Below, piece by piece: positions 4,500-62,741 of a DNA stretch of 64,000 nt (its first letter is position 1; every line of letters starts with the position of its first letter). Origin of the DNA: Mytilus trossulus (Eukaryota). The notes beneath the pieces were generated by a model. That model was not told where the DNA came from and ran no database searches. It saw nothing but the letters and a program-made list of their open reading frames with translations. The DNA lies in the NCBI RefSeq assembly GCF_036588685.1, contig NC_086376.1:37324001-37388000 (forward strand), read 5' to 3'. A program made the position numbers and the translations under genes.

Positions 4500-5430
4500 T
4501 ATCAAACTAGTCAAAACATTTACTAAATTTTATCATCGGTATCAAGACATCATTCGTAAATATAGCTCAACATGCAGACTTCTTATACGTTCAGGTATTT
4601 CAAATCCAATTTTTTTATGGAAATATTCTTTATAAAGCACAAAGGTGTCAGTATTCACCTCAGAAACTTACAAAACCTTTGAATAGACTTATTAAGAAGG
4701 GATATAATTACGATACTGTTGTCAAGTCATCAAAGATTGCATATGTTGGCGTCAATATCGAGTCACTGATAAGATCTTTGCGTCGGAACTAAACACATTT
4801 ATTCTAAAAACAGTTTTTGGTATGACACGGGTTATGTTCTTCTCATATATGTTATGATGGTATGATACTAAACCCCTAACGGGAAGGATTGTGCCTGATG
4901 TTCATATGATGAAATCATAATCTTTCAGTCAGTTTAATTGAAGTCAGGAGCTGGCATGTCAGTTAACTGCTAGTAGTCTGTTGTTATTTATGTATTATTG
5001 TCATTTTGTTTATTTTCTTTGGTTACATCTTCTGACATCAGACTCGGACTTCTCTTGAACTGAATTTTAATGTGCGTATTGTAATGCGTTTACTTTTCTT
5101 CATTGGTTAGAGGTATAGGGGGAGGGTTGAGATCTCACAAACATGTTTATCCCCGCCGCATTTTTGCGCCTGTCCCAAGTCAGGAGCCTCTGGCCTTTGT
5201 TAGTCTTGTATTATTTTTATTTTAGTTTCTTGTGTACAATTTGGAAATTAGTATGGCGTTCATTATCACTGAACTAGTATATATTTGTTTAGGGGCCAGC
5301 TGAAGAACGCCTCCGGGTGCGGGAATTTCTCGCTACATTGAAGACCTGTTGGTGACCTTCTGCTGTTGTGTTTTTTTTATTTGGTCGGGTTGTTGTCTCT
5401 TTGACACATTCCCCATTTCCATTCTCATTT
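4500..5430 (+). mobile_element. 3' fragment of an RT retroelement (Penelope-like): end of ORF plus 3' UTR
   Basis: Encodes KLVKTFTKFYHRY...; near-identical in inverted orientation to 57137-58070. Confidence 0.75.
5105..5195 (+). ncRNA. Twister ribozyme-like motif, P5 permutation (L1 TAA mutated to TAT)
   Basis: GGGG-GAGGG...TAT-CCCC-GCC-[GCA TTTT TGC]-G-CCTG-TCCCAAGT-CAGG, closed by GGTTAGAGG/CCTCTGGCC. Confidence 0.7.
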
Positions 5431-5449
5431 TATCATGCTTATAATTTGA

Positions 5450-5489
5450 CAGACGCGCGTTTCGTCTACAAGATACTCATTTCTGACAC
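5450..5489 (-). ncRNA. Degenerate hammerhead ribozyme remnant
   Basis: Retains AGAC-GAAA-CGCGCG-TC, but the CTGATGA box is mutated to GAAATGA. Confidence 0.5.
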
Positions 5490-5926: not shown

Positions 5927-6425
5927 TTAAATTGTTGAATGTATGTTTTCAAAAATATCTTTTATTACTATTTGAATAGTCATCGAGAGGATAGAAGTGG
6001 GTCGTAACCCTTGGCTAGCGAAGATGTTGAATAGTATTATAAATAACAGTTGAAACAGTTTTAAGAATCACCACGTGTTTCATAATGGAAACTTGTAGTT
6101 CTTTTTTTTCTAATTTTAATTTGGTTTGTACATTTGCGTATAATTAAAAGCAACAGTACTATACCGCTGTTCAAAAATCATAATTCGCCTGAGAGAAAAC
6201 AAAACAGTTTTACAAACTAAAACCGAAGGAAACACATCAATTATAGGAGGAAAGCAATGAATAAATAGAACACTGAAATACAAAAACAATCAATCAGTTA
6301 GGCAACAAACATAGAAACGAACTATTAGATAACAACTGCCGTATTTGGCACAACTTTTTGGAATTTTGGATCCTCAATGCTCTTCAACTTTTTACTTGTT
6401 TGGTTTTATAAATATTTTGATATGA

Positions 6426-6469
6426 GCGTCACTGATGAGTCTTATGTAGACGAAACGCGCGTCTGGCGT
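6426..6469 (+). ncRNA. Minimal type I hammerhead ribozyme
   Basis: Stem I GCGTCA/TGGCGT; CTGATGA; stem II GTCT-TATGT-AGAC; GAAA; palindromic stem III ACGCGCGT; GTC cleavage triplet ending at 6463. Confidence 0.85.
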
Positions 6470-6840
6470 ACTAAATTATAATCCTGGTACCTTTGATAAC
6501 TTTTATATTCCTGACTTAGCACAGTTATTTGTTTATGTATGTTCTTTATATTGATATTATCTTATTATTTGTTATGTTACAACATTCGACGTTTATTTGG
6601 TTTGTTTGTTTGTTTGACTTATACATACATTAAAGATCAAAATTTGTCTTCGAGTCTATCAGACCCTGTTACAGTCTTGCTCATCTCTTTCACATAGATA
6701 TTTTTCTTATATGGAAGAAATTAACACCTTATTTTCGGTTAAAAGTAATTTATTAAGAAATGACATTTTCGAATAAGCCGAATAACGATATAACGTCATA
6801 ATGATAATATGTCCATTAAATACTTAAATACTTCATATGG

Positions 6841-17829: not shown

Positions 17830-19325
17830 ATCAAAAATTTATTTTTACCTTTTTGGCCAAATTCTACCATGGTAAATAAAGAGAGAGAAATTAAAATCCA
17901 TATCCATATCCAGGATTGTGATCTTAAAAGCTCTAACAATCCTCCTCGTATCTGATGTAGAAAAACAAACACAAATGAAAAAAGTTTATGTATATTCACA
18001 ACAAATAACATATACTGCAGTAAACGGGTATTGAGAATAGTGTAGGTTTCCCTACTGCAACAGAAACCAAGGGGCGGTACTCAAGGAGCTGTGGTACTTA
18101 CACAGTCCTCCTCGTGTCTGAAGCAGACAAGAAGGCCACATAATTAACAATTTTTCGAAATAAATTTACATGCAGCAGTGAGAATAGACTTATCTTCTGT
18201 GTTCATAAGCCATATCAGTTTATCTCTTGCGTTAAGAGTTAAAAAGTTGGGGCAACTTTTAGTTATCTCTTGAAATAGATGATTGCGGTCATCATTAAAT
18301 TTAACACATTGGAATAAAAAATGATATTCATCCTCCACATCGCAGGAGCTACAACGAGTACAAGTTCTGTCATTTAGGAGAGTACCCTGATACCTTCCAG
18401 ACTCAATTCTTAAGTGGTGTGATGAAATTCTGAGCTTTGTTAAGCTTCGTCTCTGTTCAAAATTCCCAATAATGGAAAGATATTTTTCTCTTCCAAAAAC
18501 TGATTTAAATGTAACATAAGTTCTAAGTTTACCACCTGAATGCTTTACCAATTCAGTGTTCCACAAGTCTATAAAATATGATTTTAATATTTTTTTCATA
18601 TTAGCTTTGAAGCTATTAATTTTTGGTAATGGTGAAGATAGATGATTGATGTCTGGGATCATTTCAAGAATTGACTTCATAGAGCCATACCAAGATGTTT
18701 TTTTTGAGTGAGAAAGATTCTGATATGTTACATAAGCATCTTTAAGAAGAGAAAATTGGGAATCAAAATTTTCCAAGCGATACCAGTAATTTAACATGGA
18801 TTTAATCACATCATAATATAGTGGGAATCGTCCTAGCTCGGATAAAATTCCAAAATTCATGGATTTTTTATGAACACCTAAAACCAGTTTACAAAATTTT
18901 ATATGTAGTCGCTCACATTTTAAACTGGAATAGATTTTTTCAAATGGTAAAGTTCCATTTCTGAATCTTGCTGAGAATGGATTAAAAATTCCCCATATTT
19001 CAGACCCATATAGGAGTATTGGTTTTATGGTATGATCAAATACATGTAAGCTGGTACTTATGCTTGGATTAAGTGATAATAAATTCTTGTACAATTTATA
19101 ATAAGCCTTCCAGGACTTTTTATACAGTTCATTTTGAGCATATGAAAATAAACCCTGATGCACTAAAGTGCAAACCAAGATATTTATAATTATTTACACT
19201 CTCAATCAACATATTTTCATAAGTAAATTTTTCACAAATGTGTCTGCCTGCTTTGTTGAATATCAGAACCTTTGTTTTGGTGTGATTTACACTTAAACAC
19301 CAATCTTTACAATATTTTTCTAGGT
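17830..19325 (-). mobile_element. 5'-truncated non-LTR retrotransposon (RTE-X/Proto2-like), ORF2 C-terminus with Cys/His finger
   Basis: ORF 18144-19178 has KPILLYGSEIWG, LRISSHHLRIESGRY and CxxC...EDEYHFLFQC. The RT tail LEKYCKDWCLSVNHTKTKVLIF lies upstream. AATAAA at 17843-17838. Clade assignment is tentative. Confidence 0.85.
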
Positions 19326-22220: not shown

Positions 22221-23297
22221 TTTTGATGAACAATAAAAAAAAATCTGATGCTTTTTCAAAAGACATTTGTGGTTTTTACAACAAGTAAAACTTGGTTCTT
22301 TGTGTTAATTCCAGCCTCCACACAAAAAAATGAATTATCAGACATTGATTTAGATGAAGAGCAACCAAATTAGTCATATGTAAATAAAAGAAAATTCAAT
22401 GAAACTGCATTATGTAAAGCACTGCACAATTTTTATTTAGTTATTTTAGAACAATTTTATTTTTACAAAATCAATTACTTAAAAATATTACTGTCTCTTC
22501 AAAATTCTGCAATGCTTAGTTCAAATAGGTAAATACATTTTAGCTATGTGTTTGAAATGTTATTGTGTGTTTTGAAATCATTTTAAATTTTTAGAACAAA
22601 ATAAAATTCATTGGAATAATCTTTTTAATTTTAACTTAAAAAGTACATAACAGCGATTCTCAACATTCCAGAAAAAAATCTGCAATACGAGGGACATACC
22701 CAGTAGATAGTTCCCTTTGAAATATCATCCCCTTAACATATACATGAAATGAAGAATGAAATAATCTAACAAATGGCTTTAAAACTATCAATAAAAGATA
22801 AGTGCATCAATACCCATTATAGATTCTACAGTTAAAGACCTTAGAATGACCTTTCGATGATGGTGGGTGCAAGATACATATAGCTGGGGTAAATTTTCAA
22901 CACCATTTATGTTAACACGGATGAAATGACAAAAATTACTAGACTAATAAGTGCATTGTTTCATGTGCGTAACTAAAATAAAATTACTGATCTTTGACAT
23001 TTGAACCTATATATTGAAACCCCAAAAAATAGATAAAATGGTTGGCGTTCTCATCGCCATTACCCACTGCATATATGGATATGTGGGTAGTATAATTCCA
23101 TAATCTCTACTTTTCCTATTGAATTTCTCTAGCCAAATGTCAAAATTAGTTAATGGAGCTCATGATCAGAAGTGTAAATTTTAAGATATCAGTTTACTTC
23201 AATTCTGAGTGAGATTAGAAGTAAAGTGTGGCAACATGAGAACCTGAGAACCAATCAACCCATTTATTTTTATATTATAATATTAAAACAATCAATT

Positions 23298-23442
23298 GGG
23301 GCCCTTTATAGCTTGTTGTTCGGTGTGAGCCAAGGCTCCGTGTTGAAGGCCGTACTTTAACCTATAATGGTTTAATTTTTAAATTGTTATTTGGATGGAG
23401 AGTTGTCTCATTGGCACTCACACCACATCTTCCTATATCTAT
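23298..23442 (+). repeat. Short retroelement 3'-end repeat, subfamily 2 (other copies about 7081-7222 and 23897-24036)
   Basis: GGGGCCCTTTATAG...TTGAAGGCCGTAC...GTTGTCTCATTGGCA..CACCACATCTT recurs across the window. Confidence 0.75.
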
Positions 23443-24057
23443 GAAAAAATGTAGCTTAAGTGCAATAAAGACAATTTTGACCTATGCAGTTCAGAAGTTA
23501 TAGTTCTCGATTGATCTAAAAGTTATGCTTCATATTGTTTCCCTGTTGTAAATTGAGGACTGTTCAACCAATCTTTTTTCAAAATTGATTATGTTGTTTT
23601 ACATGGCATAATAGTAATAGAGGACCGTCAATTTTATTTGTTATTTTCATTTTTGCAATTCAGGATGTTTCATGTTGTTTCACAATGACTTGATAACTGT
23701 TGAACCAATGCATTCCAGCATTTAACACAATAATAGAAGAAGTGGTATTACCTAAAAGGCTCTCTTGTATCAAATCATCAGAAAACAGATTTTTTCTAGT
23801 TTACTCCATGGCCCTAGAGAAGCTGTATTGATATTTCCCTGAATCAATTAAACATAAGAACAGATTTAGTAAACATATTTCCTTCAGACTGAACAGACCT
23901 TTATAGCTTGCTGTTTGGTGTCAGACAAGGCTCTGTGTTGAAGACTGTACTTTGACCTAAAATGGTAAACTTTTACAAATTATTGCTTGGATGGAGAGTT
24001 GTCTCATTGGCACCCATACCACATTTCTTATATCTATATAATGAATGTTTTCCTCAC

Positions 24058-25806: not shown

Positions 25807-28800
25807 CTGTAAAATAAACAGAAAGTTTTTAAATTAGTTTTCAAGTTGCTCTTTCATGAAATTAGATACCCACATTTCTGTTTATTCTTAACATAAAAAA
25901 TGCAAAATAAAACATTAAATTAACAATTATATCTTAAGAATTATGTTCACTTCTAAAAAAAATACTGGGCTGATCATCTGAGAAAATGGGAGATTGGAAT
26001 ATCAAATATTATAATATAAAGTCAAGATAAACTATTCTACATAATTCTTTACAATTTCCCTGACAAAATAGTTATATTTAAAAGAAGATGTGGTATGCTT
26101 GCCAATGAGACACCAATCCAATAATCCAGCCAAGACACAAGGACAAAGATGTGTACAACTATTAATCACCATACAGTCTTAAACAATGAGGAAAACCATT
26201 ATGTAATTTAAGCTTTAAAAGGTACATGTACAGGCATGACAAAACTTGAAACAATTGAAGCAAAAAAAGCTTTATGCTGAAAACAACATCCACTAGAGTG
26301 CAGGCTCTTAACTTGGGACAAGTAAATATACAGAATAAGGCAGAATTAACAAATAATAAAAAGATGTGATATGATTGCCAATGAGACAACACTCCTTACC
26401 AGAGACCAAATGACATAAAAATTAACAACTAAAGTCATTGTACAACAATGAGTTTATCCAATAAAACTGCATAGTAAGCTATAAAAGGACCCCAAAATAA
26501 CAAAAGTAAAACGATAAAGTTACAAACAAGCTTGTGAGCGTGCCCCCTACTCTTACATGAAATATTTGTGTAACAGTACAATATAAGGACAAGCTGGAAT
26601 TCGCTTCACTAGGGCCTATATAATCAAATCAATACTAAAGGACAGAAACAGTTAACAGAAAAAGTAATGACAGAGTGCAGGATCTAGAAGAAGTACTCCC
26701 AAGATACAGAAGGTCAGTTTGCCCAATATCAAGAATGGACTAAAACTGGTTATCTGTTTGGAATTTGTTTCCCATTTTGTCATGGAGGGGCGTTTTATAG
26801 CTAACTATACAGTACACTAGACCTGCTTAATCTTGAAGTTTGTAATATATGTACAGTCAGTCACCTATAGAGCATCTGGATAGTTGCCTTTAATTGGCAA
26901 TCATACATGTACCATATTTCCTTATTCTATATAAGAATAAGTAACATGAGATGAATAATGTTTGTTAACAGAACCAGATGCTTTATTGATAGTACTTTTA
27001 CACCCTAACACTCTATATTGGCTAAATAACAGATCTATTTTAGAGCAGGGTATAAATCTTAGAGCAATATGCACAAAATAACTCAATATTGCCATTACAC
27101 TTTGAAAAGATACTCCATCTTGAAACAAATGTTCGGTTTTACAGCTATTTGTGTTTTGTTTTACGTAAAATGAGAAAATATGCAAAATACAATATTTATA
27201 GTTGTCAATTTCTCTGCTTTGAAAAAGTACAATATGAAATTTAAAATAGATATCTATTTATATATTTCGTATTTATCAAAGAGTACATATTTTTGTTTTT
27301 GAAGATAATTGAATCCCACTCACAAGTTTTAAAATAAAAAATGTTCTTGTAACCACTTGAACATCAATATATCTGACAGAAAATGATCTAAAATAGAATT
27401 TAAATGGGAACCAAAGATTTCCTTGAAATACCATAGTACAATAATAGGACAGCTTTCCCAGCACTCCTGTTACTAGTAAACAAAGGCTACAAATTTGATA
27501 AAATTAGTATCATTATTGTAATTTATTATAACTATTATATTGTCTAAAATAAAATAATTGTATGGAGATTGTAAAGAGCTAATATGCACTTTTATTTATT
27601 GTCAAATATTCAATAGTTATTGTTAAATTTGGAATGATAAACAAAAGAAATTGTGTTCTGTGGGCTTGAAACAGAAATGTTGTTGCATGTATTAAAAACC
27701 ATATTTCTACAACAACATAATAGCAACTCCGAATCTGATATTTTATATCTGTGATTAAAGACTAATTTTAGATTACTGTTTCCTTTAAAATTGTTTAGCT
27801 TCAATAAAAGAATGGAGTTATCTAATTGAAAATATGATGGGAAAAAATGAGAGAAATTGTCTCCCCTTGATTTCTTTAACTTGGTTTGTCCTGTTTGCTC
27901 TTGTTTTTTTGTTGTTCAATCTTTTTTAGGGTATGTGTGCTTTTAGTAGAATTTTGTCAGTTGGGTTTGTTTTAAGGGGGGGGGGGACAAAGTATTGTAT
28001 GTCTTTATTCAACTAGTGGATTTTTATTGCCTTGGAAGCCTCCCCTTTATTTATCTTAATTATTTGTATAGTAAAAAATTGGTAAATTTGGATTAGGATT
28101 TTATTATTCTAATTTGTAGTTGTCCTGTTTTGTTAATGAAGAAACTGTAATATATAGAGAAACATCTCTGAAACTAACAGGTCAATACTACTTATTGTTT
28201 AATTCATTAATAATTCAACAAAAAGTAATCAAACCAAATGTGTGTTTCTACAAAACTTATAAGTATTTTTCTAAATAATAAAAATTTGCTTAACAATTGT
28301 TTTCAGAGAAATTCCACTTAATAAGGGAGATACAATACAATTTTGAAAGAAAACATCCTTAATGACATGCAATGCTTGTCACTTTCCTTTTCCTTAATGG
28401 GGGCCCCTCAGGTAAAAATAAACAGAGAAAATCAATACACACACCTGTACAGTAAAACCTATTTGTGCTGATATATTCCATTTAAGACAATTTTGCTGAA
28501 AACTTCCAGATTATTCATCTTCATAAAATATTTACATTTAGTCAGTAATTTTTATCGTTAAACAAGGATCCAACATGATAAATAAACTAATTTATCTTTC
28601 TACATTCTGAATCTTACAAGTAATTTATTTGGTATTGTCACATTTTGTGTAATTTGCGTCATATGTAAATATCTGATATATATTTTCAATAATAAATTTC
28701 CCTTCAAACTATTAAAATAACTATGAATTCTAAACTGACCGGTCAAATTTTGACTTCATATTTAAAAATACCAATTTTGAGAGATAACCCTGTTTGTTTT

Positions 28801-29236
28801 CACTGTAGCACCATGAATCAATTATTTGTAAACAATCATTTATCAGTGAGTAATGGAAAGAATTCTGAATCACAAAATTTTAATTTAAACAGGTATATAT
28901 ATAAATTTTCTCTCACACACTACTGAATACTTTAACATTTTCCTGGGGTGATACATTATAGAATAATAATAGGTGATAGAACAGATACTAAGGAGATATT
29001 TACCTGTTTGGTAGTACATGTACAGGTATTAATGTACCGTTAATTAGTAGATGACAAAAGTGGATTACGTTTTATTGGTAAATATCATTAACACTGAAAA
29101 TTGTGTAGAAAAATGATAAAATTTTGATTTTTCACAAGAGAATAATAGTGACTGGACATTAATAGGATATACCAGTTGGTTTCAAGTGTCTACCTTAAAT
29201 ATTCTGAGTCTTTGACTATCAGGAAATCAATACAAA

Positions 29237-30103
29237 ATGGTGGTTAAAGACAGGACTTTGGAAATGCACAAGAAACGTGAAGAACTTGGGAGAAACAGCA
29301 AGAGATTTTCATTCAAAAAGAAAAATACACCAATGGATATATTAATGAAGAAAGTGAAACGTATAGAAAACGATTTGATAGAGATACAGAGCCATGTGAC
29401 TGAAGTCACTAAACTTCAGAATAATCTCTATTGTTCGCCATTTGTCACACAGACAGAATTAAAAAAAATGGAAAAATTATCTGATCATATTTTAACTGAA
29501 TCTGTCAAAATACGTAAAGAAATTGAAGCTTTATCCAACAACAATAATGAAATTTCAGAAGCTGACGCATATCAGAAAGTATGTGTGAATCAGATTGAGA
29601 GATTGTCTCATCAGCTTCGTGAGATTATGAACACTTTCCGAGCAAATCAGGCAGATTATATTGACAAAACTAGGACAAGGTTTCAAAGAAAGGTGGTGAT
29701 AGTATCCAAGGAGGATAACCCCGATATTGACATGAACCAAGTTGATTTCCAAACTCATTCAGTGTTTACCGATAATATTATAATTCAAATGCAAACGGCC
29801 AAATCTGACCTTCAAGAATTGGAAGATAGGGAGAAAGAACTCCATCAATTAGAAAATCAAATTCATGAAGTTAATCAATTATTTAAAGAAATGAATGTGT
29901 TAGTTGGTGAACAAGGTGACATGTTAAATAACATTGAGAAAAATGTAGAGGAGGCTGTCGTACATGTGACCAAAACAAATAAAGTATTAAGGCAGGCTAA
30001 AGAGTACAAGTCTAAAGCCAGAAAAAAGAAATTTATATGTGCGGCCATCTTAGGTGCTGTTGTTGTAATAACAGTTGTTATTCTTATCATCGTATTTGCT
30101 TAG
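29237..30103 (+). CDS. Intronless syntaxin-1-like Qa-SNARE (288 aa), nested antisense in HLCS intron 8
   Basis: N-peptide KDRT, helical Habc-like region, SNARE motif with zero-layer Q (LFKEMNVLVGEQGDMLNNIE), polybasic KARKKK, C-terminal transmembrane anchor. Uninterrupted ORF. Confidence 0.92.
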   Translation: MVVKDRTLEMHKKREELGRNSKRFSFKKKNTPMDILMKKVKRIENDLIEIQSHVTEVTKLQNNLYCSPFVTQTELKKMEKLSDHILTESVKIRKEIEALSNNNNEISEADAYQKVCVNQIERLSHQLREIMNTFRANQADYIDKTRTRFQRKVVIVSKEDNPDIDMNQVDFQTHSVFTDNIIIQMQTAKSDLQELEDREKELHQLENQIHEVNQLFKEMNVLVGEQGDMLNNIEKNVEEAVVHVTKTNKVLRQAKEYKSKARKKKFICAAILGAVVVITVVILIIVFA

Positions 30104-32986
30104 TGAAGTTAAATCTACCTCAGTGGTGCCATCATTGTTATTTAATTGTCACTGTTAATTTATTTTTCATAAATATACATTATTTTGTAAATTGATTATT
30201 TTTTTAGTAAAATATCTATTTGATTACAGAATTATTTAATTTGCTTTATTTTGCAATCCTTACAGAATTTCACCTCTATGACACAATTAATGCAGACTTG
30301 GCCTAAAGTCCAATGACATATTTGATGCAGATTTGGCCTAAAGTCAATTTTTTTTATCAGCAGATCTCTTTATCAATAATCCCAACAGAACTATCAAATA
30401 TATGAACAAAGCTGACAACGACCAGAAACAAAGGATTAGATCTATACTAGCCTAAAGTAAAATTTTACACTGAATTAATAAATATTTTAGAAAACCTAGA
30501 CAAAAACTTTCAAAAGGGCAGTCACCATCTATAAGGGGTCAAGCATTTAGCACTATACATGACTTTAGCAAGAAGCAATTAAAACATGAATGACTCTGCA
30601 TCAATAATAGAGTAATCCAACTAAATTATTTTTTGTTCAACAGCACCTTTTCCCTATCCCTGACTAATTGTGTTTCAAAAACCCTGGAGCATTTAAACAT
30701 GTTATTTTAAACTGAAGATGTTTTATTTGTCTGGTTTTGGTGTCTATTAATAAGAGTAAACAAAAATCTTCAAGGAAAGCAAATTCTGGAGACTGAACTG
30801 CTTGTCTGAAGTTATCACAATAATATCAAGAACAAAATGAAAGAACATTTTGAAAGAAAGCTAACGTAATGAAGTCCCCACATAATCAGCACAACAATAT
30901 TTTACAATTCCTACTCCTTAGAATAAGGTTCGACTAAGGTTCCACATTTCAGATATTTCTCATTATAGAACTTGTTATATAACTGTTTTGATAAATGAAT
31001 ATCTTCAATATTGAAGAGAACAGGACCAAATAAATTAAAAAGCATTATCCTGATATAACAAAGTGTTGATTGACAGACTGACAGACAGAATGACTGACTG
31101 GTAGACATGACAAGAACATAATTCCTCCTCCTCCCCCACAATTTCCTGCAGTTTGGTAACAACAATTATCAAGGTTGCTTTATCATAAATTGTGCTTATA
31201 GGTTTTTCATATTTCACAACCTTTAAATGTCAATTATTTAACCTATGTAAAAGCTACATGGATAAATAATTTATCTAAATATACATGCCTAGTTAAACTT
31301 TGACAGACCAAACCTGTTTGAACTTCATGTGTGCAGTTGACCATAAGTCCATAAACATATATAGAAATCAATAAAAACTATATATAAATATTTTTTTCTA
31401 AAAAAACAATCATATGTTCTACAAATAGTATGTTATAAAACTATGTATGAATATACATAACATTAGCACTTGTCTAAGAAATCTAAATATGAACACATAA
31501 AAGATTACGTTATATGACCAATGTCCTTAGAAGGCCCAATAAGGACCCTTGGAAATTTGGTTAGGAATCTCCATAATCCTTCTGTATTTCAAATCTACTC
31601 TTCTTTATTCTAAATGCTTCAGATATATTTGAGTAGAGCAGGATACAGTCACTTATCATCAAATGCATCTATTAATTCACATAAATTATAAGTTTTTAAC
31701 AGATTGGTAACTTTATCTTTGTAATTAAAAGATATCAGCATTTCTGATTTTTTTTAAATTGCATCCTCTTCCTGGAGTGCTTTTATTCAATATACTATAT
31801 AAACTGTGAAAAAAGATAGGAAGAAAGAATTTTTCAGATGTAACTGCAAGTTTGCAACACAATGCCAAAATTCAAACTTAGGATTCAATAATTCCCATAT
31901 CGTAAAAAAATAGCCACAGCAGTGGACACAATTTAAACAGGGATTTTCCTTAACCTTGTCCAACAACCATTTCTGGGACCACAAGAGGTCAGACTAAAAG
32001 AGAGACAAAGAAAAGCCAATATGACCCTAAAATATTTGTTTTACAAGGAGCATAATAAATATGATAAAAGGACATTTTAGTTCAGGTGAATAAAACAGCA
32101 ACTTTGGACATAGGTCAGACAAAAATAAATGTTGTTTACTCAGAAAAAAATGCAAGTGTCCACTTCGATCCTTTAAAATAAATATCCCAAATAAAAATAT
32201 AAAAAGATGTGGGAAAAAGAAAAGTGCAATCAAATCCTATAATTTGTTTACATAATCATTTGACTTTGAAATGATAGTTCAAGGTCATCTTCCTTCAAAT
32301 TTAAGTATGTCCATCCCTCATTGGTAAATAAAGTGTCACAATACAACTAATTTAGCCACTTAATTGGTAATAATTGTCAGATAAACAAAAATATGGATAT
32401 TTCTAGTTATAAGAGATATATGACAAAAACCATGCAGACTTCCGTGTTTGAACATAATTTTTCATATTTTATGGTTAACAAATTTGCTATATAATAGAAT
32501 AATATTGCTTACAATTAAGGGTTACCTAACGTGATGATAAAAACACTTCAAACGCTCTATCTAAAAGTATAATCAGGAAAAGGGTTTGGTCATATAAATT
32601 GATTTTATTTCTCTCTAAACAAATTTCTACATAAACACTTATACTAATATATAGGAAGATTCTGAGGATGAACATTCTGAGGATGAACACGTTACCATTT
32701 CCCATGATGCTTTATATTCACTCTCACAATATTTATTAGACAGATTGTAAACAACTGGATAATCATCATAATATAAGTATAAATCTGTTATTAAATAAGT
32801 ACAAAACAAATACCCTACAGAAATTACGTCTCATGTCAATAGCGAAGCATTAAAATTGATAATCTGGTATCTAACCTGCCTTCATACAGTAATCCTAAAA
32901 GGATGCATTCAAGTCCACTTTCATAACCAAAAAGTATCTATATTAACTATTTCTGTTAATATTTTGTATATACTTTTTGTTTTTTC

Positions 32987-33133
32987 GGGGCCTTTTATAG
33001 CTGACTATGCGATATGGGTTTTGCTGATTGTTGAAGGCCGTATGGTGACCTATAGCTGTTAATGTCTGTGTCATTTTGGTCTTTTGTGGATAGTTGTCTC
33101 ATTGGCAATCATACCACATCTTCTTTTTTATAT
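32987..33133 (+). repeat. Short retroelement 3'-end repeat, subfamily 1 (same end as the 56041 element; remnants at about 13790, 26085, 26365, 40510, 58964)
   Basis: Matches the reverse complement of 56041-56176. Confidence 0.75.
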
Positions 33134-38874: not shown

Positions 38875-40506
38875 AACAAGGGGCTCTCAAGAGCCTGAAT
38901 CGCTCACCTTAATTCTTTTGGTTAAATCTCTCATCAATGATTATTTTGGCTTTTCAATTTATTTAAATGTTCTTTGGATCGTCCTATTTTCTTCAAAAGC
39001 CAAACAAAATAATCATTTTCTCCTATGTTCTATTTTAGCCATAGGAGCTGTTTCTTGACATACAAGGAAATAAAATATAAAATGTATACTAGAAACTCTG
39101 AAACTCATTTAGCCTAAGTTTGGCTGAAATTGATACAGCAGTTTCAAAGGAGAAGATTTTTTAAAGTAAGTCAACATGATGAACAAATTGTGAAAAAAGT
39201 CTTTAAAGGGCAATAACTCCTTAAGGGGTCAATTGACAATTTTGGTCATGTTGACTTATTTGTAGATCTTACTTTGCTGAACATTATTGCTGTTACAGTT
39301 TATCTCTTATCTATAATAATATTCAAGATAATAAACAAAAACAGCAAAATTTCCTTAAAATTATAAATTCAGGGGCAGCAACCCAACAACAGGTTGTCTG
39401 ATTCATCTGACAATTTCAGGGCAGATAGATCTTAACCTGATAAACATAATAACCCCATGTCAGATTTGCTCTAAATGCTTTGGTTTTTGAGTTATAAGCC
39501 AAAAACTGCATTTGACCCCTATGTTCTATTTTTAGCAATGGCGACCATGTTTGTTGATAGATCAAAACTTCGGATACAATTTACAAACAAGAAACCCTAA
39601 GGAACATTCAGTTAAAGTTTAGAAGTATTTGGCCCAGTAGTTTCAGAGGAAAAGATTTTTGTAAAAGATTACTAAGATAATTTACGAAAAAATGGTTAAA
39701 AATTGACTATAATGGGCAATAACTCCTAAAGGGGTCAACTGACCATTTCCGTCATGTTGACTTATTTGTAAATCTTACTTTGCTGAACATTATTGCTGTT
39801 TACAGTTTATCTCTTATCTATAATAATATTCAAGATAATAACCAAAAACAGCAAAATTTCCTTAAAATTACCAATTCAGGGGCAGCAACCCAACAACGGG
39901 TTGTCTGATTCATCTGAAAATTTCAGGGCAGATAGATCTTGACCTGATAAACAATATTACCCACAAGTCAGATTTGCTCTAAATGCTTTGGTTTTTGAGT
40001 TATAAGCCAAAAACTGCATTTGACCCCTATGTTCTATTTTTAGCAATGGCGACCATGTTTGTTGATAGATCAAAACTTCGGATACAATTTACAAACTAGA
40101 TACCCTAAGGAACATTCAGTTAAAGTTTGGAAGTATTTGGCCCAGTAGTTTCAGAGGAGAAGATTTTTGTAAAAGATTACTAAGATTTACGAAAATGGTT
40201 AAAAATTGACTATAAAGGGCAATAACTCCTAAAGGGGTCAACTGACCATTTCCGTCATGTTGACTAATTTGTAAATCTTACTTTGCTGAACATTATTGCT
40301 GTTTACAGTTTATCTCTATCTATAATAATATTCAAGATAATAACCAAAAACAGCAAAATTTCCTTAAAATTACCAATTCAGGGGCAGCAACCCAACAACC
40401 GGTTGTCTGATTCATCTGAAAATTTCAGGGCAGATAGATCTTGACCTGATAAACAATATTACCCACATGTCAGATTTGCTTTGCTTTGGGCCAGGTGAGC
40501 TAAAAA
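38875..40506. mobile_element. Helentron-associated (HINE-like) element with about 3 tandem copies of a unit of about 505 bp
   Basis: AACAAG start, sub-terminal inverted repeat GCTCACCT/AGGTGAGC, TAAAAA end. AGGGGCAGCAACCCAACAAC at 39371, about 39878 and 40380. Confidence 0.75.
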
Positions 40507-40854
40507 TGTGATGTGGTTGCCAATGAGATAACTCTCCACAAGAAACCATAATGACACAGAAATTAACAATTATAGGTCACCTTACAGCCTTCAACAAAGA
40601 GCAAAGGTATGTTTACTTCATGCAAATATGTTTACTCCTTAGAAAAAAAAAAAAAACTTGGAGAATATGTAAACAAATTTCAACACAACCCTGTTGCATT
40701 AAAAAGGAAAGAGTATACCACTGCAGAAGATTCATTATTATTTACAGCTTTGAACTGTAAATGCGGTACTTTTTGTGTTTGTTAATTATTGCCATTTTTA
40801 AGTAATGAAACAAATTGCCAGATTAATAATTCAATCTCCTTTATTATCCTGCTT

Positions 40855-53018: not shown

Positions 53019-53414
53019 TAGTACTTTAATCAGTTCTAGCTAGAAGATAGTATGGTTAGTGAGTTTATGAAATGACAGCTAGCTGTTAGGATTGTATAGT
53101 TCTAAATTGGTTTGACAGGAGGATGGTATGAGATTTACCATATTTTTGTAACAGAAGTAGGCCACTTAGAGATCTGCCATAGTTTTTGCTTTTTAATTGA
53201 GAGGTAGAGTGTTGAAAGATTTAACTTTGGTTAAGCTAGGAGGTAGGCAAATATTTGATGTACCTTATTTTAGCTAGGGGGTTGGATAGCAAATAAGTTA
53301 ACATAGTTTATTACCAGATAGGCTGATGTGAAAGTTACCTTAGTTTAAGCTAGGAGGTAGAGCAAGTTTTACCTTTGGTTAAGCTAGGAGGTAGGTTTCT
53401 GTATTAAAGATGTA

Positions 53415-53556
53415 CTGTGAACCAACTTATTTTCGCGACTTTTAGGAGTAGAAAAATAAGTGAAAATAGATTGTCGCTTGTATTCAAAACTCAGATCTTT
53501 TGTTATTAAACCACACCAGCAAAATATAGTATCTGCAAAAATAAGTTGGTTTACAG
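53415..53556. mobile_element. TA-flanked MITE (related remnants about 8690-8875, 14450-14665, 36235-36408)
   Basis: TA-CTGTGAACCAACTTATTTT ... AAAATAAGTTGGTTTACAG-TA. Confidence 0.7.
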
Positions 53557-53635
53557 TACCTGAATTAAAGCTTGGAGGAAGGATAGCGAATGAGTTACCA
53601 TAGTTAACTAGCAGAAAGGCTGATTTGAAATTTAC

Positions 53636-53815
53636 CTTATTTTTAGCTAAGAGGTAGGCTGGAGTATATATAGGTGTCTGATCTCTATCACAGTTATATC
53701 CCATTCTCTTCAGTAAAGACGACAGCATCTCTAATCTGACTGAATTAGATTCCTTCAGTATGTTAAACATCTCTACAGTCGCAGCTATATCAGTGGGATC
53801 TTGATCTAGTAAAAC
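53636..53815 (-). CDS. HLCS: HLCS coding exon 5 (VLLDQDP...FNILKESNSVRLEML...TPAYLLAKNK)
   Basis: Acceptor TTATAG|GTT, donor AAG|GTAAAT. 180 nt. Matches FNLLKSSN...TPLYLL of HLCS. Confidence 0.92.
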
Positions 53816-54019
53816 CTATAAAAAACAGTAATGTAGGTTTTACTGTAATAGTAGAGAAATTGCTTAGTGACTTAAAAAGATTTTATTTATCAAAGTATTT
53901 TTGTATTGATGTTCACTTTTTATTTGTGTTTAAATGATTACCACAACAAATCTTAAAAGTCTTAGCAGTTAATTAAAGATAATAATAAATCATTAAAATA
54001 TATTGTAACTAGAACAAAC

Positions 54020-54822
54020 CTGTGACAGAATAGCTCTTCCTTGACCTTCAGCCTTTGGTTTGATGTCAACAATCATAGCTTGTCCATCTTTATCTTGGCA
54101 AAGGGACTGAATGCACATCAAATCTTTAACAGACTCCTGAGGCAGATAACAGTAACGACCACATAATAGTGTAACCTTCTTCCATTTTTCATAATCAACA
54201 ACAGAAATATCGGGATGAGTACGAAGTTCTCTTCTAGGTACAAAATCAGAATCTAATGAACTTCCAAAGCTTATAACTTTACCACCCTGCTCAATAAACT
54301 GGAGAAAAGCAGCATCTACTCTGTCATACAAATTGTCACATGATACAACTAGTAATGCACAGTTATCTGCCCATGGAATGGAGGCCACCTGGTCATGTTT
54401 CAAATGATACAGGATGTAGCAGTCTGTATTTATACATTGTTCAAATACTGATTTAATATTTTGAAATTTTCTTGCTGAGTCTTTCTTTCCAGCATACACT
54501 AATACATTTGGGGGTTTGGATGTATGACTTTGGTCGGGAGGAATAAAAACAGCTGGCATGGGGATCATTTCACTTAACGCTTCGCCATAACCACTCTCTC
54601 CCATCATCTTTTGCAAATCATCTTCATTTGTTGCTATGGAGTCGATTTCGTCATTGTCATCACCATCTAAAACCTCTTCCATGTTACCAACACTTCTTGA
54701 GGATGCCATTGATTCGTTTGAACATCTTCCAACCTCTGTAGCTTCATCAAAATTATTCATCATACTACACTCCTCATCAGTTTTCTGTACTAAGTTGCTA
54801 GCATGGCCTTCTACGTCTATAC
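54020..54822 (-). CDS. HLCS: HLCS coding exon 4 (acidic linker plus BPL N-terminal domain, KPPNVLVY...YILYHL...PWADNCALLV...GGKV)
   Basis: Acceptor TTTCAG|GT, donor CAG|GTTTGT. 803 nt, phase 1/0. Clear HLCS motifs. Confidence 0.92.
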
Positions 54823-55091
54823 CTGAAATATTTATGATTTCAAATGACATTTCTTTTTTAATTTGAAAATACAATATCAATACTTAAAGAATTAAGCCTT
54901 TACTCTTTATTTTTTTTTACTCTATTTCAGTAAGCTCTGTTAAAGTCACTATATGTGTTATTGGTAAATTCCTTATAATAAAATATCTAAAGATTTTTTT
55001 GGGGATTTAAATATGAGGTCACTGTGCAACAATCTTACTTTAAATCTATCTACATGTAATTTCTAATCCATTTCATACAAATAATACATAC

Positions 55092-55245
55092 TGAGTACTT
55101 TCTGTACAATGAGATCTTCATCTGTTGACAAGGCTAAGTCTGAGAAAGCCACACACATGGCTACAAAATTCTCCTGAGAACATTTCATTATTATACCAAA
55201 AGGAGGTCCGGTCTTCCATGCTATTGGTCTGCCTAGGTCCAACAT
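55092..55245 (-). CDS. HLCS: HLCS coding exon 3 (MLDLGRPIAWKTGPPFGIIMKCSQENFVAMCVAF...QKVL)
   Basis: Acceptor TTTTAG|ATG, donor A|GTATGT, phase 0/1. Similar to HLCS PLACRPGDPY...NFSKLGVAF...QKIVS. Confidence 0.8.
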
Positions 55246-55508
55246 CTAAAATCATATGACTGAAAGCTTTACATTTAGAAAAGTTTTCTCTAATTACATG
55301 TATACTTTCCCTTATATAACGGTAATAAGCATTGTGTATTAGATCCATAAAATTTAGTTGATGCAAACTAAAATTAAAGAGTTCAGAAATGGCAAATTCA
55401 ATTATCTTTTCATTTATAAAGAAACATATATATATAAATATGAAATGTATATAGTTCAAGAAGGGGTAAAATTCTTAAATTTGTCCTAAAGTCCTTGTTT
55501 TTTCTTAC

Positions 55509-55667
55509 ATTAGTTTTCATGTTCTTGGCTTCTTCCTCCTTCATATATTCTTGAGCATCTTCAGGTCTGATAGATTCCACCAATACCCAAACATCTTCTG
55601 ATGATTTATCATATTGATTGGGTTCTAAGGCAAAGTATGTAGTCCATTCAGTCAAGTTTATTTTTAC
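55509..55667 (-). CDS. HLCS: HLCS coding exon 2 (VKINLTEW...KTN)
   Basis: Acceptor CTACAG|GTA, donor AAT|GTAAGA. 159 nt, phase 0/0, joins exons 1 and 3 in frame. Confidence 0.7.
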
Positions 55668-56040
55668 CTGTAGGTATAGAATAAATTTCATACGTTTCTT
55701 CTTAGAATATTTTTTAAATACACTCACCAGTGGAGGATCCTGGGGACATATGATTAGAACACACACACACACACACCCTTTTATCATGGGTTGGGAACCC
55801 CACCTTTTCAAAAAGGTTCCACCCCTGGTCAATAAGATGCCATTGAAATTCCACTGTGTAGTAGCATAACACTAGTGTAGTACATGTATCTCATACTGTG
55901 AAAAAGAAGTGTGCAGTTGTCATGTAATTCTGGATCATAAATGGTAATTTTGCATAATGTCTATAATCTACATATGTAAGTAGAGATCAATTGCACCAAT
56001 CATACCAGGTTCTTAACTTTTGTTTAATTTTGGACCTACA

Positions 56041-56938
56041 TATAAAAAAGAAGATGTGGTATGGTTGCCAATGCGACAAGAAAGAAAATAATGACACACA
56101 TTAACAATTACAGGTCACCGTACGGCCTTCAACAATGAGCAAATCCCATACCGCATATAGTCAGCTATAAAAACCCTGATAAGACACTGTAAAACAATTC
56201 AAGCGAGAAAACTAACGGCCTTATTTATGTAAAAAAATGAACGAAAAACAAAGACGTAACACATAAACAAACGACAACCACTGAATTACAGGCTCCTGAC
56301 TTGGGACAGGCACATACATAAATAATGTGGCGGGGTTAAACATGTTAGCGGGATCCCAACCCTCCCCCTAACCTGGGACAGTGGTATAACAGTACAACAT
56401 AAGAACGAACTATAAAAATCAGTTGAAAAAGGCTTAACTCATCAGATAGACAAAAAATAAAAGTGGACGTGGCCGGGTACTTATACATCCCGACACAAAA
56501 AGACACAATGAACAGATTTGAGAGTACTCGCAGTTATCTGACAGCTAGTTCAAAGCCATTAACAACTAATAAAAAAATCATGCCTCTAAGACTAAGCAAT
56601 CAATCCATACACATCCAACATACAATGGATTTAGTGTAAAGACGTCATAAACAGCCAGAGAAAAACATGACCTTGTGCAATGCCAATTTACAGGTATCGA
56701 CAGATTGTAGATCCATGAAAATGTATATGTATATAACATACTAGTAATATTTAGTTAGCTTTTAATCTACTGATAACGAAATCAATATTTATACCAATAA
56801 AAACAATATTCAATGATCTTATTACAGTGTTGAATAGGTAACCTTTTAGAATAAGTTTATTTAAAGGAGCACGGTTAACAACATTTCCGTAAAAATGAGG
56901 ATGTGCTATCCCGTTTGAAATAAGTTTTCTACGTTTAT
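56041..56938 (-). mobile_element. 3' fragment of a second Penelope-like RT subfamily, in HLCS intron 1
   Basis: The peptide GIAHPHFYGNV...PLNKLILKGY..NTVIRSL is homologous to the end of ORF 57777-58196. A distinct 3' UTR follows. Confidence 0.7.
56278..56384 (-). ncRNA. Twister ribozyme, P5 permutation, core motifs intact
   Basis: Minus strand reads CAGG-TTA-GGGG-GAGGG-TT-GGGATCCC-GCT-AACATGTT-TAA-CCCC-GCC-ACAT[loop]ATGT-G-CCTG-TCCCAAGT-CAGG-AG-CCTG, with outer stem CCACTG/CAGTGG. Predicted U^A cleavage between 56338 and 56337. Confidence 0.8.
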
Positions 56939-57136
56939 ATACATGAATATAGTGGTGAAATATCATTGAAATTCAAACAAATGTTGATAACCTCACACAG
57001 GTTCAAGCATTTACAGCACTAAATTTAGCCAAAAATGTTAAGCATTTACCATGTTTACTGGAAATTAATCAAAATTTAATAGAGAAAAACACATTTTTTT
57101 TAAACTGATAATATAATTTTAGCCACTGGTACTAGC

Positions 57137-58223
57137 TATAAAATTGAGAATGGAAATGGGGAATGTGTCAAAGAGACAACAACCCGACCAAATAAAAAAA
57201 CAACAGCAGAAGGTCCCCAACAGGTCTTCAATGTAGCAAGATATTCCCGCACCTGGAGGCGTCCTTCAGCTGGCCCCTAAACAAATATATACCAGTTCGG
57301 TGATATTGAACACCATACTAATTTCCAAATTGTACACAAGAAACTAAAATTAAAATAATACAAGACTAACAAAGGCCAGAGGCTCCTGACTTGGGACATG
57401 CCAAAAATGGGGCGGGGTTAAACATGTTTGTGAGTTCTCAACCCTCCCATTTATACCTCTACCCAATGTAGAAAAGTAAACGCATAACAATACACACATT
57501 AAAATTCAGTTCAGGAGAAGTCCGAGTCTGATGTAAGAAGAAGTAACCAAAGAAAATAAACAAAATGACAATAATACATAAATACAACAGACTACTAGCA
57601 GTTAACTGACATGCCAACTTCAGACTTCTATTAAACTGACTAAAAGATTATGATTTCATCATATGAGCATCAGGCACAATCCTTCCCGTTAGGGGTTTAG
57701 TATCATACCATCATAAGATATATGAGAATAACATAACCCGTGTCATACCAACAACTGTTTTTTTTAATAAATGTGTTTAGTTCGGACGCAAAGACCCTAT
57801 AAGTGAATCAATATTAACGTCAAAATATGCAATCTTTAATGACCTGACAACAGTATCGTAACTATATCCCTTCTTAATAAGTCTATTCAAAGGTTTTGTT
57901 ATTTTCTGAGGTGAATACTGACACCTTTGTGCTTTATAAAGAATATTTCCATAAAAAATTGGATGTGAAATACCTGCACGTATAAGAAGTCTGCATGTTG
58001 AGCTATATTTACGAATGATGTCCTTATACCGATGATAAAATTTAGTACATGTTTTGACTAGTTTGTGATATCGAAAACTCTGGTGTAATAATTTTTCAGT
58101 AATACATAAATTTCTCTCGTTAAAATCTAAAACATTGTTACATACACGAGCCAATCGTACAAGTTGGGATATATAAACACCGTAAGATGGTGACAATGGA
58201 ACGTCACCATCTAAAAATGGATA
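57137..58223 (-). mobile_element. 5'-truncated Penelope-like RT element (RT C-terminal region plus 3' UTR), in HLCS intron 1
   Basis: YPFLDGDVPLSPSYGVYISQLVRLARVC...EKLLHQ is typical of the PLE RT thumb region. No C-terminal GIY-YIG. Same family as 4500-5430. Confidence 0.75.
57374..57463 (-). ncRNA. Degenerate twister copy
   Basis: GAGGG...TAACCCCGCC...TCCCAAGTCAGG retained. P2, P4 and one palindrome carry mismatches. Confidence 0.6.
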
Positions 58224-58616: not shown

Positions 58617-59306
58617 CTTTTTATCTTGTCATGTAGAATTCAACATCCATTTCATCCTGCAAAGATACAACATAATGAAGAATTAGTTTGACAGCCGCTG
58701 TGGCTCTGTTATTTTTTTATCGTTTGGCGTTGTTAACGTAATCAAGACTGTTATCTTTGTTTGCTTATTATTATAAGCAGATCATGATGTGAGGTATAAA
58801 TGAAGTCAATGAGTCAGTAATTGGAGGACAAAGTAACATTTAAGCGTGTGTGCTTGAGACTAGCACCCATACATATATTACATTGTAAAACAATCTTGAC
58901 ACATTGTAGTTATGTGTTTTAATCAATCATAAATTAACCACATCTTTTGGACTCTTAAAGATTTGTCTCATTGGCAAACATACATTTGTACCACATCTCC
59001 TTATTTTATAATGATCAAATCTCAAAATTACTTTATATCACACATCTAAATAATATGTTGAGTCCAAAAATTGTTCATTGTGTGAAAAACAGATGTTATC
59101 ACTATTACTTCAAGATTGGCAGTAAAACCTCCCATTAAACATGTTGAAGTAATCACAGGGGCTTGTGTAGTGGTTCAGACGAGGCTTTACTGTCAATGGT
59201 GGTCGCTTTCCTATAGACTATTTTTGAGGTATAATAGGGAATAATTCTACTGAAATATAATTGATTGAACACAGCCTTTTATAAAAAAAAATTGACTATG
59301 TTTACC

Positions 59307-59739: not shown

Positions 59740-59817
59740 ATTATGTTATGATAATGATTTGATAATGTTATGATAATGATTATGTTATGATAATGATTAT
59801 GATAATGTTTTGATAAT
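59740..59817. repeat. (TATGATAATGAT)n-like simple repeat at the LINE 5' junction
   Basis: Directly visible repeated TGATAATG. Confidence 0.7.
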
Positions 59818-62741
59818 GGGTGATTTAAACTTCAATATGCTTGATGACAATAAAAGCTCAACTTTAAATGATTCTTGTGATATTTTCTGTATTAAAAACA
59901 TTATTAATAAAGCAACATGTTATAATAGAAATTCGAAACCAACTCTTCTTGATGTAATTTTAACTAATCAAGAAAATAAATGTGGTAAAAGATGTAATTT
60001 TGGATGTGGCTTAAGTGATGTTCACAACCTGATTGGGGTTCAAATAAAATGTGAACGACCTAATATCAAACCAAAATACAGAAAATGTAGAAGTTTTAAA
60101 AATTTTGATGTAAATGATTTTTTATCTGATTTGAATGAGTTAAATTGGGATGTTGACCCTCATAATAACATAAATACTGAGTATGAAAACTTCAACAAGA
60201 AGTTTATTGAAACAGCAAATAAACATGCACCCTTTAAAGAAAGAAAATACTATCTAAACAGATACCATACATGAACAAACAGTTAAAATCTGCAATTTAT
60301 AAAAAGAAAATGCTTTACAACAAATTTCAAAACAGCAAGACATGGGATGCATACAAAACACAAAGAAATTTTGTCACTAAACTTAAAAAACAATCCATAA
60401 ATAGATACTTCATAGAACGCTGCACAGGTGGTCCTAAGTCGAAAGATTTCTGGCCAACAGTTAAGCCATTCCTTACCAACAAAGGATGCACCAGCCAAAA
60501 AGAAACCATACTGCAGGAAAACAACAAAATCATCACGAACCAACAAGAAATATCTGAAATTTTTAATGACTTTTTTGTTAATGTTGCAAAAAACATTGGT
60601 GACAACAACATACAGGTGAATGACAAACACCCAAGTATAGAAGCTATAAGTAATAAATACTCAAACGGGTCAAAATCAAATAAACTTATTTTTCAGCCTA
60701 TAAATGAGGAATTTGTTTCTAAAAGAATTGGTAAAATAAATGTTAAAAAGGCTACTGGTATAGATGGTATATCACCAAAAATTTTACACGCTGCTAAACC
60801 TGTAGTGATTAAACCTATCACACAGCTTGTAAATTTATCATTATCCACTTCCATTTTTCCAGACTCATTAAAAATTGCCCAAGTGGCACCTGTTCACAAA
60901 AAAAATAGTGTTCTTGAAAAGGGTAATTATAGACCAGTTAGTGTTTTACCTGCTATATCTAAAATTTTTGAAACAGCCATAGAAAATCAACTCACTAAAT
61001 ACTTTGATGATATTTTCGACCATTTTCTTGCGGCATTTCGAGCTGGTTATGGCTGCCGGTCAACATTACTCAAAATTTTGGAAGATTGGAAAAAGGCACT
61101 GGATAATAATAAATATTTAGCGGCTATATTAATGGACCTAAGTAAAGCCTTTGACTGTCTTCCACATGATTTACTTCTTTTGAAATTGGAAAATATGGCC
61201 TTAGTCCATCTGCTCTGGAATTACTCAAAAGCTATCTGACTGCAAGAAAACAGTGTGTAAAAATAGGCCAGAGTATCAGTCAAATGCAAGATATATATAA
61301 AGGTGTTCCTCAGGGATCTATACTAGGCCCTGTATTATTTAATGTTTTTATAAATGATATTTTTCTTTTTGTCAAACACTGTGATTTATACAACTATGCT
61401 GATGATAACACCCTCTCAAAAACAGGTACTACTTTGGAATCAGTTATTAAACCCTTAGAGGAAGACAGTAATTCCCTAATCTCATGGTTCTCTTTCAACA
61501 AAATGCAGGCAAACCCAGAAAAATTCCAGGCAATTTCCATAGGTAAAAAAACACACACTCAAAATATTACTTTCAACCTAAATGGATTCAACATAAAATG
61601 TGACGACGAAGTGAAACTTCTCGGTGTAACAATAGACTTTAAACTGGATTTTAACACTCACATCTCAAATATTTGCAAAAAAGCTGCACGACAACTAAAC
61701 GTTCTAAAAAGAATTGGCACTCATCTCACCAGACTTTCAAAACTTACAATATACCACTCATTTATCATGTCAAACCTCAGCTACTGTCCTCTTACATGGC
61801 ACTTCTGCAGTGAACAAAACACAAAGAAAATAGAAAAAATACAAGAAAGAGCACTCAGATTTATTTATGACGACTACACAAATTCTTACAATACACTTCT
61901 TGAACAATCTAAGCTACCAGCACTAAAAATCAGAAGATTGAGAACCATGGCATTAGAGACATATAAAATAATAAATAAATCAAGTCCAGAATTCCTACAT
62001 AATTTAGTAAATATTAAAGAAAATTCATATAACTTCAGGTACAAAGGCATAGCAGATATACCACGGCCAAAAACAACAAGGTATGGTAATAAAAACTTTA
62101 GTTATGAGGCAGCAAAACTCTGGAACTCCTTGCCAAATGAGGCAAGGAGCTTATCAACTTTTGGCCAGTTCAAAAATTTTATCTCCACCTGGTGTTTTTC
62201 AGAAAAATGTACATGCAGTTCTTGTAAATAATGTACTTACTTGCTGCCCCATAACTTGATCTCGAAGCCTGCTGTTTATTTGGTTTTTTTAATGTTTTAT
62301 TTTTTTGCAGTTATTTTTATTTTTTATTTAGCCATTTATTTCTTTTGCTTATGCATTACCTTTGCTATAGCTGCATGCAGTCTTTTGTTTGTGCTTAAAG
62401 TGTTTAAAAGTTTGCATGTGCTACTGTTATATAAATACTATGTGCTACTGTATATGTGCTGATATTAGACATTTGTTTTAATCTATCTTGCAATGCTTAG
62501 CTTTTATTCTGCATGTGCTATCTATGTATTAATATATATATGTGCTATCTATGTATTAATATATATATATGTGCTGTCTATTTGCATATTTGTGTTGTAT
62601 GTGTGTCTGATGTTATTACATGTATGTTTTGTTTATTAATATCAGTCGGTTAAAGAGCTCTTAAGAGCTCATGTTCATTGTTATTATGTATATATATGCA
62701 ACCCGACTTTAAATAAAGATTACTTTACTTTACTTTACTTT
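59810..62741 (+). mobile_element. 5'-truncated CR1-group LINE; ORF2 (APE endonuclease end plus RT) broken by two frameshifts
   Basis: IMGDLN, LLDVILTN, LSDVH (endonuclease). NYRPVSVL, MDLSKAFD, GVPQGSILGP, YADD (RT). 3' AATAAA followed by a (TACTT)n tail. Confidence 0.93.

Follow-up and report, generated by a model that had tools for sequence, protein, structure and literature searches.

A predicted twister ribozyme variant in the 3' untranslated region of Naiad Penelope-like elements from mussel

Naiads are Penelope-like elements (PLEs) for which Craig et al. 2021 (PMC8557442) describe an N-terminal GIY-YIG nuclease, a CxC motif and a DKA motif as diagnostic marks. Their selenoprotein families Naiad_Mmer and Naiad_Scon combine these marks with a C-terminal RT in about 4 kb, form partial tandems and carry a SECIS after the stop, as do the elements described here. 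That study reports no canonical hammerhead in Naiads, and the word "twister" has 0 occurrences in its main text; it took the lack of hammerheads as a sign that ribozymes may be dispensable or parasitic in PLEs, and its Discussion suggests that they may merely parasitize these elements. The pseudo-LTRs of canonical PLEs carry hammerheads (Cervera and de la Pena 2014, PMC4209133), small self-cleaving motifs which, like the motif described here, lie in sense to the ORF and have a palindromic part, and for which a circular template has been proposed (PMC4209133, PMC6765202). They belong to another ribozyme class and have one palindrome in helix III, whereas here two palindromes flank the 5' side of the predicted cut. 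Twister variants are linked to a retrotransposon in Schistosoma Perere-3 (PMC8501958), where they likely process the RNA of the element, as they may here. However, Perere-3 is described as an RTE-clade LINE with the ribozyme at its 5' end and insertion boundaries at the cut, while the Naiad twister lies in the 3' UTR and copy boundaries fall 282-297 nt from the cut. In structure, the motif resembles the type-P5 twister (PMC5408937), which likewise ends in P5 and has P2, P3, P4, both pseudoknots, the scissile adenine and the general-base guanine; it differs from that type in having no normal P1 hairpin and in falling below Rfam thresholds. A further paper (PMC11662667) added bivalve twister candidates with a focus on type P1, and its supplement may list related sequences. 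Among papers open without subscription we found none linking twister to Naiads or PLEs, and "twister" occurs 0 times in the available part of bioRxiv 2026.07.22.740005.

The window analyzed here is a 64,000-nt stretch of Mytilus trossulus contig NC_086376.1 (positions 37,324,001 to 37,388,000). An earlier note on this DNA had proposed a Penelope-like lineage with a twister where others carry a hammerhead; our analysis supports that proposal and places the lineage in the Naiads. The note had named neither this clade nor the selenoprotein features, and it had not seen that the twister is P5-permuted and that palindromes stand where P1 would be. Three copies in the window, all of them solo and truncated, carry the following features.

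56041-56930, minus strand: copy A, a 5'-truncated Naiad of subfamily A, with its 3' end at 56041
56751-56930, minus strand: C-terminal 59 codons of the RT of copy A, with the TAA stop at 56751-56753
56590-56656, minus strand: SECIS-like element of copy A (Rfam SECIS_1, 27.3 bits, E 0.015, gathering score 35)
56289-56375, minus strand: P5-permuted twister variant of copy A, intact, with the predicted cut between 56338 and 56337
56350-56357 and 56339-56346, minus strand: palindromes replacing P1 in copy A
56108-56176, minus strand: second fold of copy A, a long irregular hairpin with a bulged UUGAAG at 56127-56132
56041-56100, minus strand: terminal segment of copy A, pyrimidine-rich with a fixed 3' end; hairpin weak (z -0.97)
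57138-58223, minus strand: copy B, a 5'-truncated Naiad, 95.1% identical to the 4017-nt unit of locus L001
57777-58223, minus strand: C-terminal 148 codons of the RT of copy B and TAA stop
57660-57724, minus strand: SECIS-like element of copy B (Rfam SECIS_1, 33.4 bits, E 3.2e-4)
57378-57460, minus strand: degenerate twister variant of copy B, predicted cut after 57420 (two mismatches in P2, one in P4, first palindrome broken)
57206-57277, minus strand: second fold of copy B
4503-5433, plus strand: copy C, a 5'-truncated Naiad, 97.7% identical to the L001 unit
Within copy C, plus strand: RT piece with a frameshift near 4613 and its stop at 4790-4792
4854 and 4895, plus strand: SECIS cores of copy C
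5109-5191, plus strand: twister variant of copy C, predicted cut after 5148, with the conserved A after the scissile adenine lost
From 5292, plus strand: second fold of copy C

All three copies show one order in sense to the ORF (RT C-terminus, stop, twister-like motif, second conserved block, fixed 3' end), as the earlier note had read it, and the third copy that it placed near 4500-5430 was recovered at 4503-5433 on the plus strand. The twister is flawless only in copy A, where the predicted cut lies 297 nt before the 3' end, and is damaged in the other two of the three copies. Copies B and C are 93% identical and A shares only islands with them, so that A and B do represent different subfamilies; the RT piece of A has a 12-codon deletion relative to its closest protein, P0023. 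The idea that A and B form a true tandem was refuted, as the RT match of A is limited to 56754-56930 and about 205 nt of non-element DNA lie between A and the 3' end of B, because of which the two look like separate insertions. The spacers after their stops had been called unrelated, but A and B both have a SECIS-like element there and one further common conserved block. For the proposed terminal hairpin, the fixed 3' segment stood, but the hairpin itself is weak (z -1.0 to -2.2). A conserved block between SECIS and twister lies at 56520-56550 (minus), 57590-57620 (minus) and 4950-4980 (plus) and is recognizable also in L007, L009 and L014. Within the RT coding sequence of B there is a strong 11-bp hairpin (58168-58222, minus, z -5.5).

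Relatives were collected by a protein search with the RT piece of copy B, which returned 219, and by a contig scan, which returned 8 loci. By the contig scan L001-L003 are full length, and these full-length elements carry the cassette. The L001 unit of 4017 nt has a single ORF of 1002 codons if TGA is read through, in the order zinc-finger and GIY-YIG nuclease, CxC, DKA and RT. The alignment of relatives has the GIY-YIG domain N-terminal to the RT, with CCHH and upstream zinc-finger motifs, as well as the CxC motif and DKA instead of DKG. Pfam detected GIY-YIG in the aligned relatives L015 (E 4e-7) and L025 (E 1e-7) and not in L001 and L011 themselves; the best PDB match of the N-terminal profile was an intron endonuclease (E 0.066). 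For a predicted RT structure (mean pLDDT 78) the top 13 Foldseek matches were all telomerases (best E 7e-8), while PDB sequence searches with the RT gave chance matches only. Read by eye, the N-terminus matches those of Naiad_Mmer and Naiad_Scon. The element's own 3' end precedes the ORF as a pseudo-LTR in L001, L003 and L015, and tandem arrays occur in L009-L012. Judged by their sequence, copies A, B and C belong to the Naiad PLEs. No C-terminal GIY-YIG follows the RT in the window, as had been noted before; this is expected, because Naiads, including the full-length relatives, encode the nuclease N-terminally.

Naiad-like elements and tandem arrays in L009-L040 lie in contigs labeled bacterial, likely from animal contamination of those assemblies. 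The viral contigs scanned gave no twister-pattern match and no RT relative. In read run X23, first mates over the 5' ORF (L001 537-1206) are 3-7 times more often on the minus strand, and not so in X22; if the library is stranded, this bias would mean sense transcription of full-length elements.

In-frame UGA codons occur in L001 at codons 55, 86, 97 and 522, and all four align with cysteine in other loci; the UGA codons are retained in L002-L003, and three of the four sites are common to L009-L011. As described for Naiad_Mmer and Naiad_Scon (PMC8557442), UGA stands at the first cysteine of CCHH and at those that precede GIY-YIG and follow DKA, whereas the fourth UGA of L001, in the upstream zinc finger, occupies a site that the same paper reports for a spider family. 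Unlike what is predicted for L001, the mussel Naiad families described there are not selenoproteins. Rfam SECIS matches were found in five of eight close loci and exceed the gathering score in L009, L011 and L014 (39-43 bits), with A and B below the gathering score of 35; none is listed by Rfam for L015, which lacks UGA. In subfamily A we found no 5' ORF, and the SECIS is the only such feature seen there. The RT tree has 28 rows and holds fetched loci only, with no named references and loci below 60% coverage left out; within it the SECIS-bearing loci form one starred branch (99/98) of 13 rows, which suggests a single SECIS-branch origin shared with clam-type elements. The match of UGA to aligned cysteines and the SECIS hits indicate that these elements likely encode selenoproteins. 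The SECIS lies upstream of the predicted cut and would remain with the ORF.

The twister motif is a P5 permutation, in which the ends pair in P5 and the order is P2', pseudoknot strand, linker, cut, P2, P3 and P4. Two regular-expression descriptors missed known copies and a scored parser was used instead, with position labels following rice twister numbering. Copy A, L001-L007, L009-L012, L015 and L026 scored 21/21, C and L013 scored 20, and B and L014 scored 18. In 20 shuffled windows, scores of 20-21 were never reached, 19 was reached once and 18 was reached 28 times, so the twister of copy B counts only through homology. The scissile N-A and the general-base G are present according to the parser. 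Across 12 aligned sequences, 92.1% of 191 cells are paired against 30-49% in slid controls, and 9 of the 16 twister pairs, including two of the three pseudoknot T1 pairs, show compensatory change on both sides; as the structure was drawn from these same, related sequences, the controls are generous, and relatedness likewise makes shuffle controls overstate significance. Both pseudoknots and the catalytic positions persist from mussel-type to clam-type families, and the twister stays in the 3' UTR, in sense, even between elements whose proteins share only 45% identity. At its gathering score Rfam gave 0 matches in the window and did not call the motif in the relatives, with only a partial match to twister-P1 (E 5.9). 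A P1 stem closed by a loop is missing; the segment folds at 0 to -5.6 kcal/mol and mostly forms no stem beside the cut. With the P1 stem absent, we file the motif as a twister variant and not as a canonical member. It probably cleaves. Twisters are described as able to cleave without P1 (PMC5408937, PMC11662667), and on that basis even a monomer may well cut.

Where P1 would be expected, 11 of 13 sequences have a pair of palindromes in the linker, compared with 3-14% of shuffles, and the letters of these palindromes differ between families; the two sequences lacking the pair are L026 and copy B, which is damaged. In several cases the second palindrome has a single base at its centre and leaves too little room for a hairpin loop, a hint that two RNA molecules pair with each other. 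The homodimer energies of the palindromic segment are individually not outstanding, with 3-52% of shuffles as low. We regard as doubtful the wider proposal that the twister is gated by dimerization, the palindromes of both terminal copies pairing with each other within a tandem RNA. Cutting and end-joining would then be confined to transcripts ready for transposition, and the host would be spared harm from the numerous solo copies in its introns. By the same proposal all Naiads would need a cutter in this slot, filled by twister, by rearranged hammerheads or by a third palindrome-bearing fold; the last of these, seen in Naiads of oyster, hemichordate and hydrozoan, would represent a new class of ribozyme.

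The second conserved block contains the UUGAAG motif in a long hairpin, from which the motif is bulged in most copies. The two helices of this second fold are paired in 86% of 101 cells, with three of nine pairs compensatory; RNAalifold recovered one of the two helices (4 pairs only, -0.61 kcal/mol), and single-sequence z-scores ranged from +0.39 to -2.78 across nine sequences. The fold is confined to the clade that comprises A, B, L004, L005 and L007 and, by eye, absent from more distant twister-bearing Naiads. On this comparison it is moderately supported as a clade-limited structure and is a putative signal for RT binding or priming. Its identification as a hammerhead, an HDV-like ribozyme or a SECIS was rejected, as the core motifs of these are absent and Rfam lists nothing there. 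Also rejected was an intron with its downstream boundary at the pyrimidine tract that follows the 3' end, with no GT..AG joint among the 15 of 512 joints listed. A hairpin with shared flanks, possibly a promoter or RNA signal, opens the 5' UTR directly behind the 3'-end junction (L001 150-215, L011 about 3050-3090; z -1.45).

With a pseudo-LTR upstream, a transcript would contain two twisters one unit (4017 nt) apart, and two identical cutters so placed have the making of unit-length RNA as their simplest use. By a reading that we hold to be slightly more probable than its negation, the twister cuts tandem transcripts to unit length, the ends being kept paired by the P5 permutation, then ligated, with priming at the fixed 3' site. 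Both twisters would cut, and the resulting unit-length RNA would have a 5'-OH at one end and a 2',3'-cyclic phosphate at the other; pairing in P5, P2 and the pseudoknots would keep these ends together until they are joined by a host ligase or by the ribozyme. The RT would then prime at the fixed 3' site, probably recognizing the second fold and the terminal tract, and would run through the junction to give the more-than-unit cDNA that is the pseudo-LTR structure; short copies would be ordinary early stops of the RT. This model is that proposed for hammerheads in other PLEs (PMC4209133, PMC6765202), with a different cutter. Long copies cross the twister without a scar, because of which the template would have been either uncut or rejoined there.

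Copy boundaries were examined by aligning four read runs to one L001 unit and by locating short copies in the window.

26076-26345, minus strand: degenerate short copy with its 5' end at the predicted cut (-1), directly behind the 3' end of another copy
32982-33132, plus strand: short copy beginning near the second fold
Near 4014-4166, 7010-7217, 23296-23436 and 23892-24027: other short copies of this kind
Near 26355-26487, 26758-26906, 40504-40605 and about 58960-59000: further short copies of this kind

Copies end at L001 134-137, seen as loose ends in both DNA and RNA, 285-288 nt past the cut. The earlier note had proposed that the cut releases a 3' RNA of 280-300 nt whose reverse transcription yields the short stand-alone copies, which the data now make very unlikely. 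The short copy at 26076-26345 starts where such a product would, and none of the 10 short copies begins upstream of the cut, but it is the sole case among the 10 and the other nine start 48-259 nt downstream; how far these starts could be traced may depend on homology to the two references. From the twister bin to its upstream neighbor the summed DNA depth drops by about 30% (3.90 to 2.75 million), as the release of a 3' RNA would have it; however, depth falls at every step from the 3' end (6.46, 4.41, 3.90, 2.75, 2.43 and 2.24 million) with no wall at the cut. Nor is a pile-up of copy 5' ends listed there: no loose end at 3866-3867 is among the 24 best-supported of 3211 rows, in which the weakest DNA entry has 209 contigs and each position of the 3' end has 373-665. 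A short copy in L026 retains the whole twister. RNA starts or ends at the cut are absent from the sites listed in two raw-read runs (6 of 7 sites, with a threshold of one-fifth of depth). These absences set an upper bound on the effect, since only the best-supported rows are listed and short RNAs can be lost in standard library preparation. By eye, we saw no target-site duplication.

Tandem arrays bear on how many twisters cut. Among eight array junctions, four are full, three join the 3' end to a 5'-shortened next unit and one has a deletion. Pure rolling circle would give identical junctions, and this variability counts against the unit-length model, as do an array unit without a twister, the damage to two of the three window twisters and the lack of RNA ends at the cut among the sites listed. 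Variable junctions at a fixed 3' end fit separate priming events and would agree with cutting by the upstream pseudo-LTR twister alone, which would, in the manner of R2 and Perere-3, separate the 5' end of the element from read-through RNA, leave a linear RNA as template and let tandems arise by template jumps. The tandem twister lies 286 nt before the start of the next unit, and the Perere-3 twisters are described as cutting at the 5' end (PMC8501958). We nevertheless think upstream-only cutting unlikely, as both copies have the same sequence and the selective silence of one needs an extra rule; it also predicts pseudo-LTR 5' ends that stop at the cut, where the ends listed show no pile-up. 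We hold it improbable that the twister has no role in transposition, either limiting element mRNA by severing its 3' end or being a passenger, inactive or parasitic, that is retained because the fold binds protein. In favor of such a reading, the twister is missing from one array unit, the listed sites hold no RNA ends at the cut, and a parasitic role is raised in the Discussion of Craig et al. (PMC8557442). Against this stands the keeping of catalytic positions and both pseudoknots through compensatory change, always in sense and in the same place.

The spread of the twister was followed in published Naiad consensuses, of which the last 500-600 nt were read by eye for 32 of 54 (PMC8557442 supplement File S5), with record names inferred from file order and unsure for chelicerates. 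The same twister with its palindromes was seen in five of the 32 (Mgal, Bpla, Mphi, Scon and Mmer). Another ten have a different conserved fold in the same slot, a stem enclosing a 10-nt palindrome of varying letters with conserved GCAG and GCUYAC blocks, found in oyster, ark clam, pearl oyster, hemichordate and one Clytia Naiad. This oyster-type fold is a candidate for an unknown ribozyme or dimer signal, and it is absent from the window and from all 40 loci. About nine of the 32 have hammerhead-like cores and the rest have no recognized fold. In the cores near the Amil, Plae, Obim and Esco headers GAAAC precedes CUGAUGA, and these may be hammerheads in a rearranged order that canonical descriptors overlook. 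With the parser, five distant relatives for which 3' sequence was present (L022-L025 and L028) reached at most 17/21.

The data suggest that Naiads, reported to lack such cutters, swapped the hammerhead for a twister. A conserved twister in the same slot, including that seen by eye in the five consensuses of PMC8557442, argues that cutting belongs to the cycle, and it gives a short testable RNA for the open question of pseudo-LTR origin. It would also be a second retrotransposon role for twister, adds a mussel-type member to the rare selenoprotein transposons and marks a slot for seeking new ribozymes.

Other features of the window were recorded alongside. A type-I hammerhead-like repeat at 6425-6470 (plus) and a degenerate reverse copy at 5445-5485 (minus), just after copy C, are not called by Rfam; hammerhead- and twister-type repeats thus share this genome. 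Exons of a biotin-protein-ligase-like gene (53384-55670, minus, Pfam BPL_N) have an acceptor near 55670, and its upstream exon was not located in the window; the intact twister of copy A lies about 650 nt upstream of these exons in the same sense, perhaps in an intron of the gene. A LINE-like C-terminal ORF at 18144-19193 (minus) has no Pfam match. An uninterrupted syntaxin ORF spans 29216-30103 (plus), and a frameshifted LINE with RVT_1 matches lies at 59780-62231 (plus).
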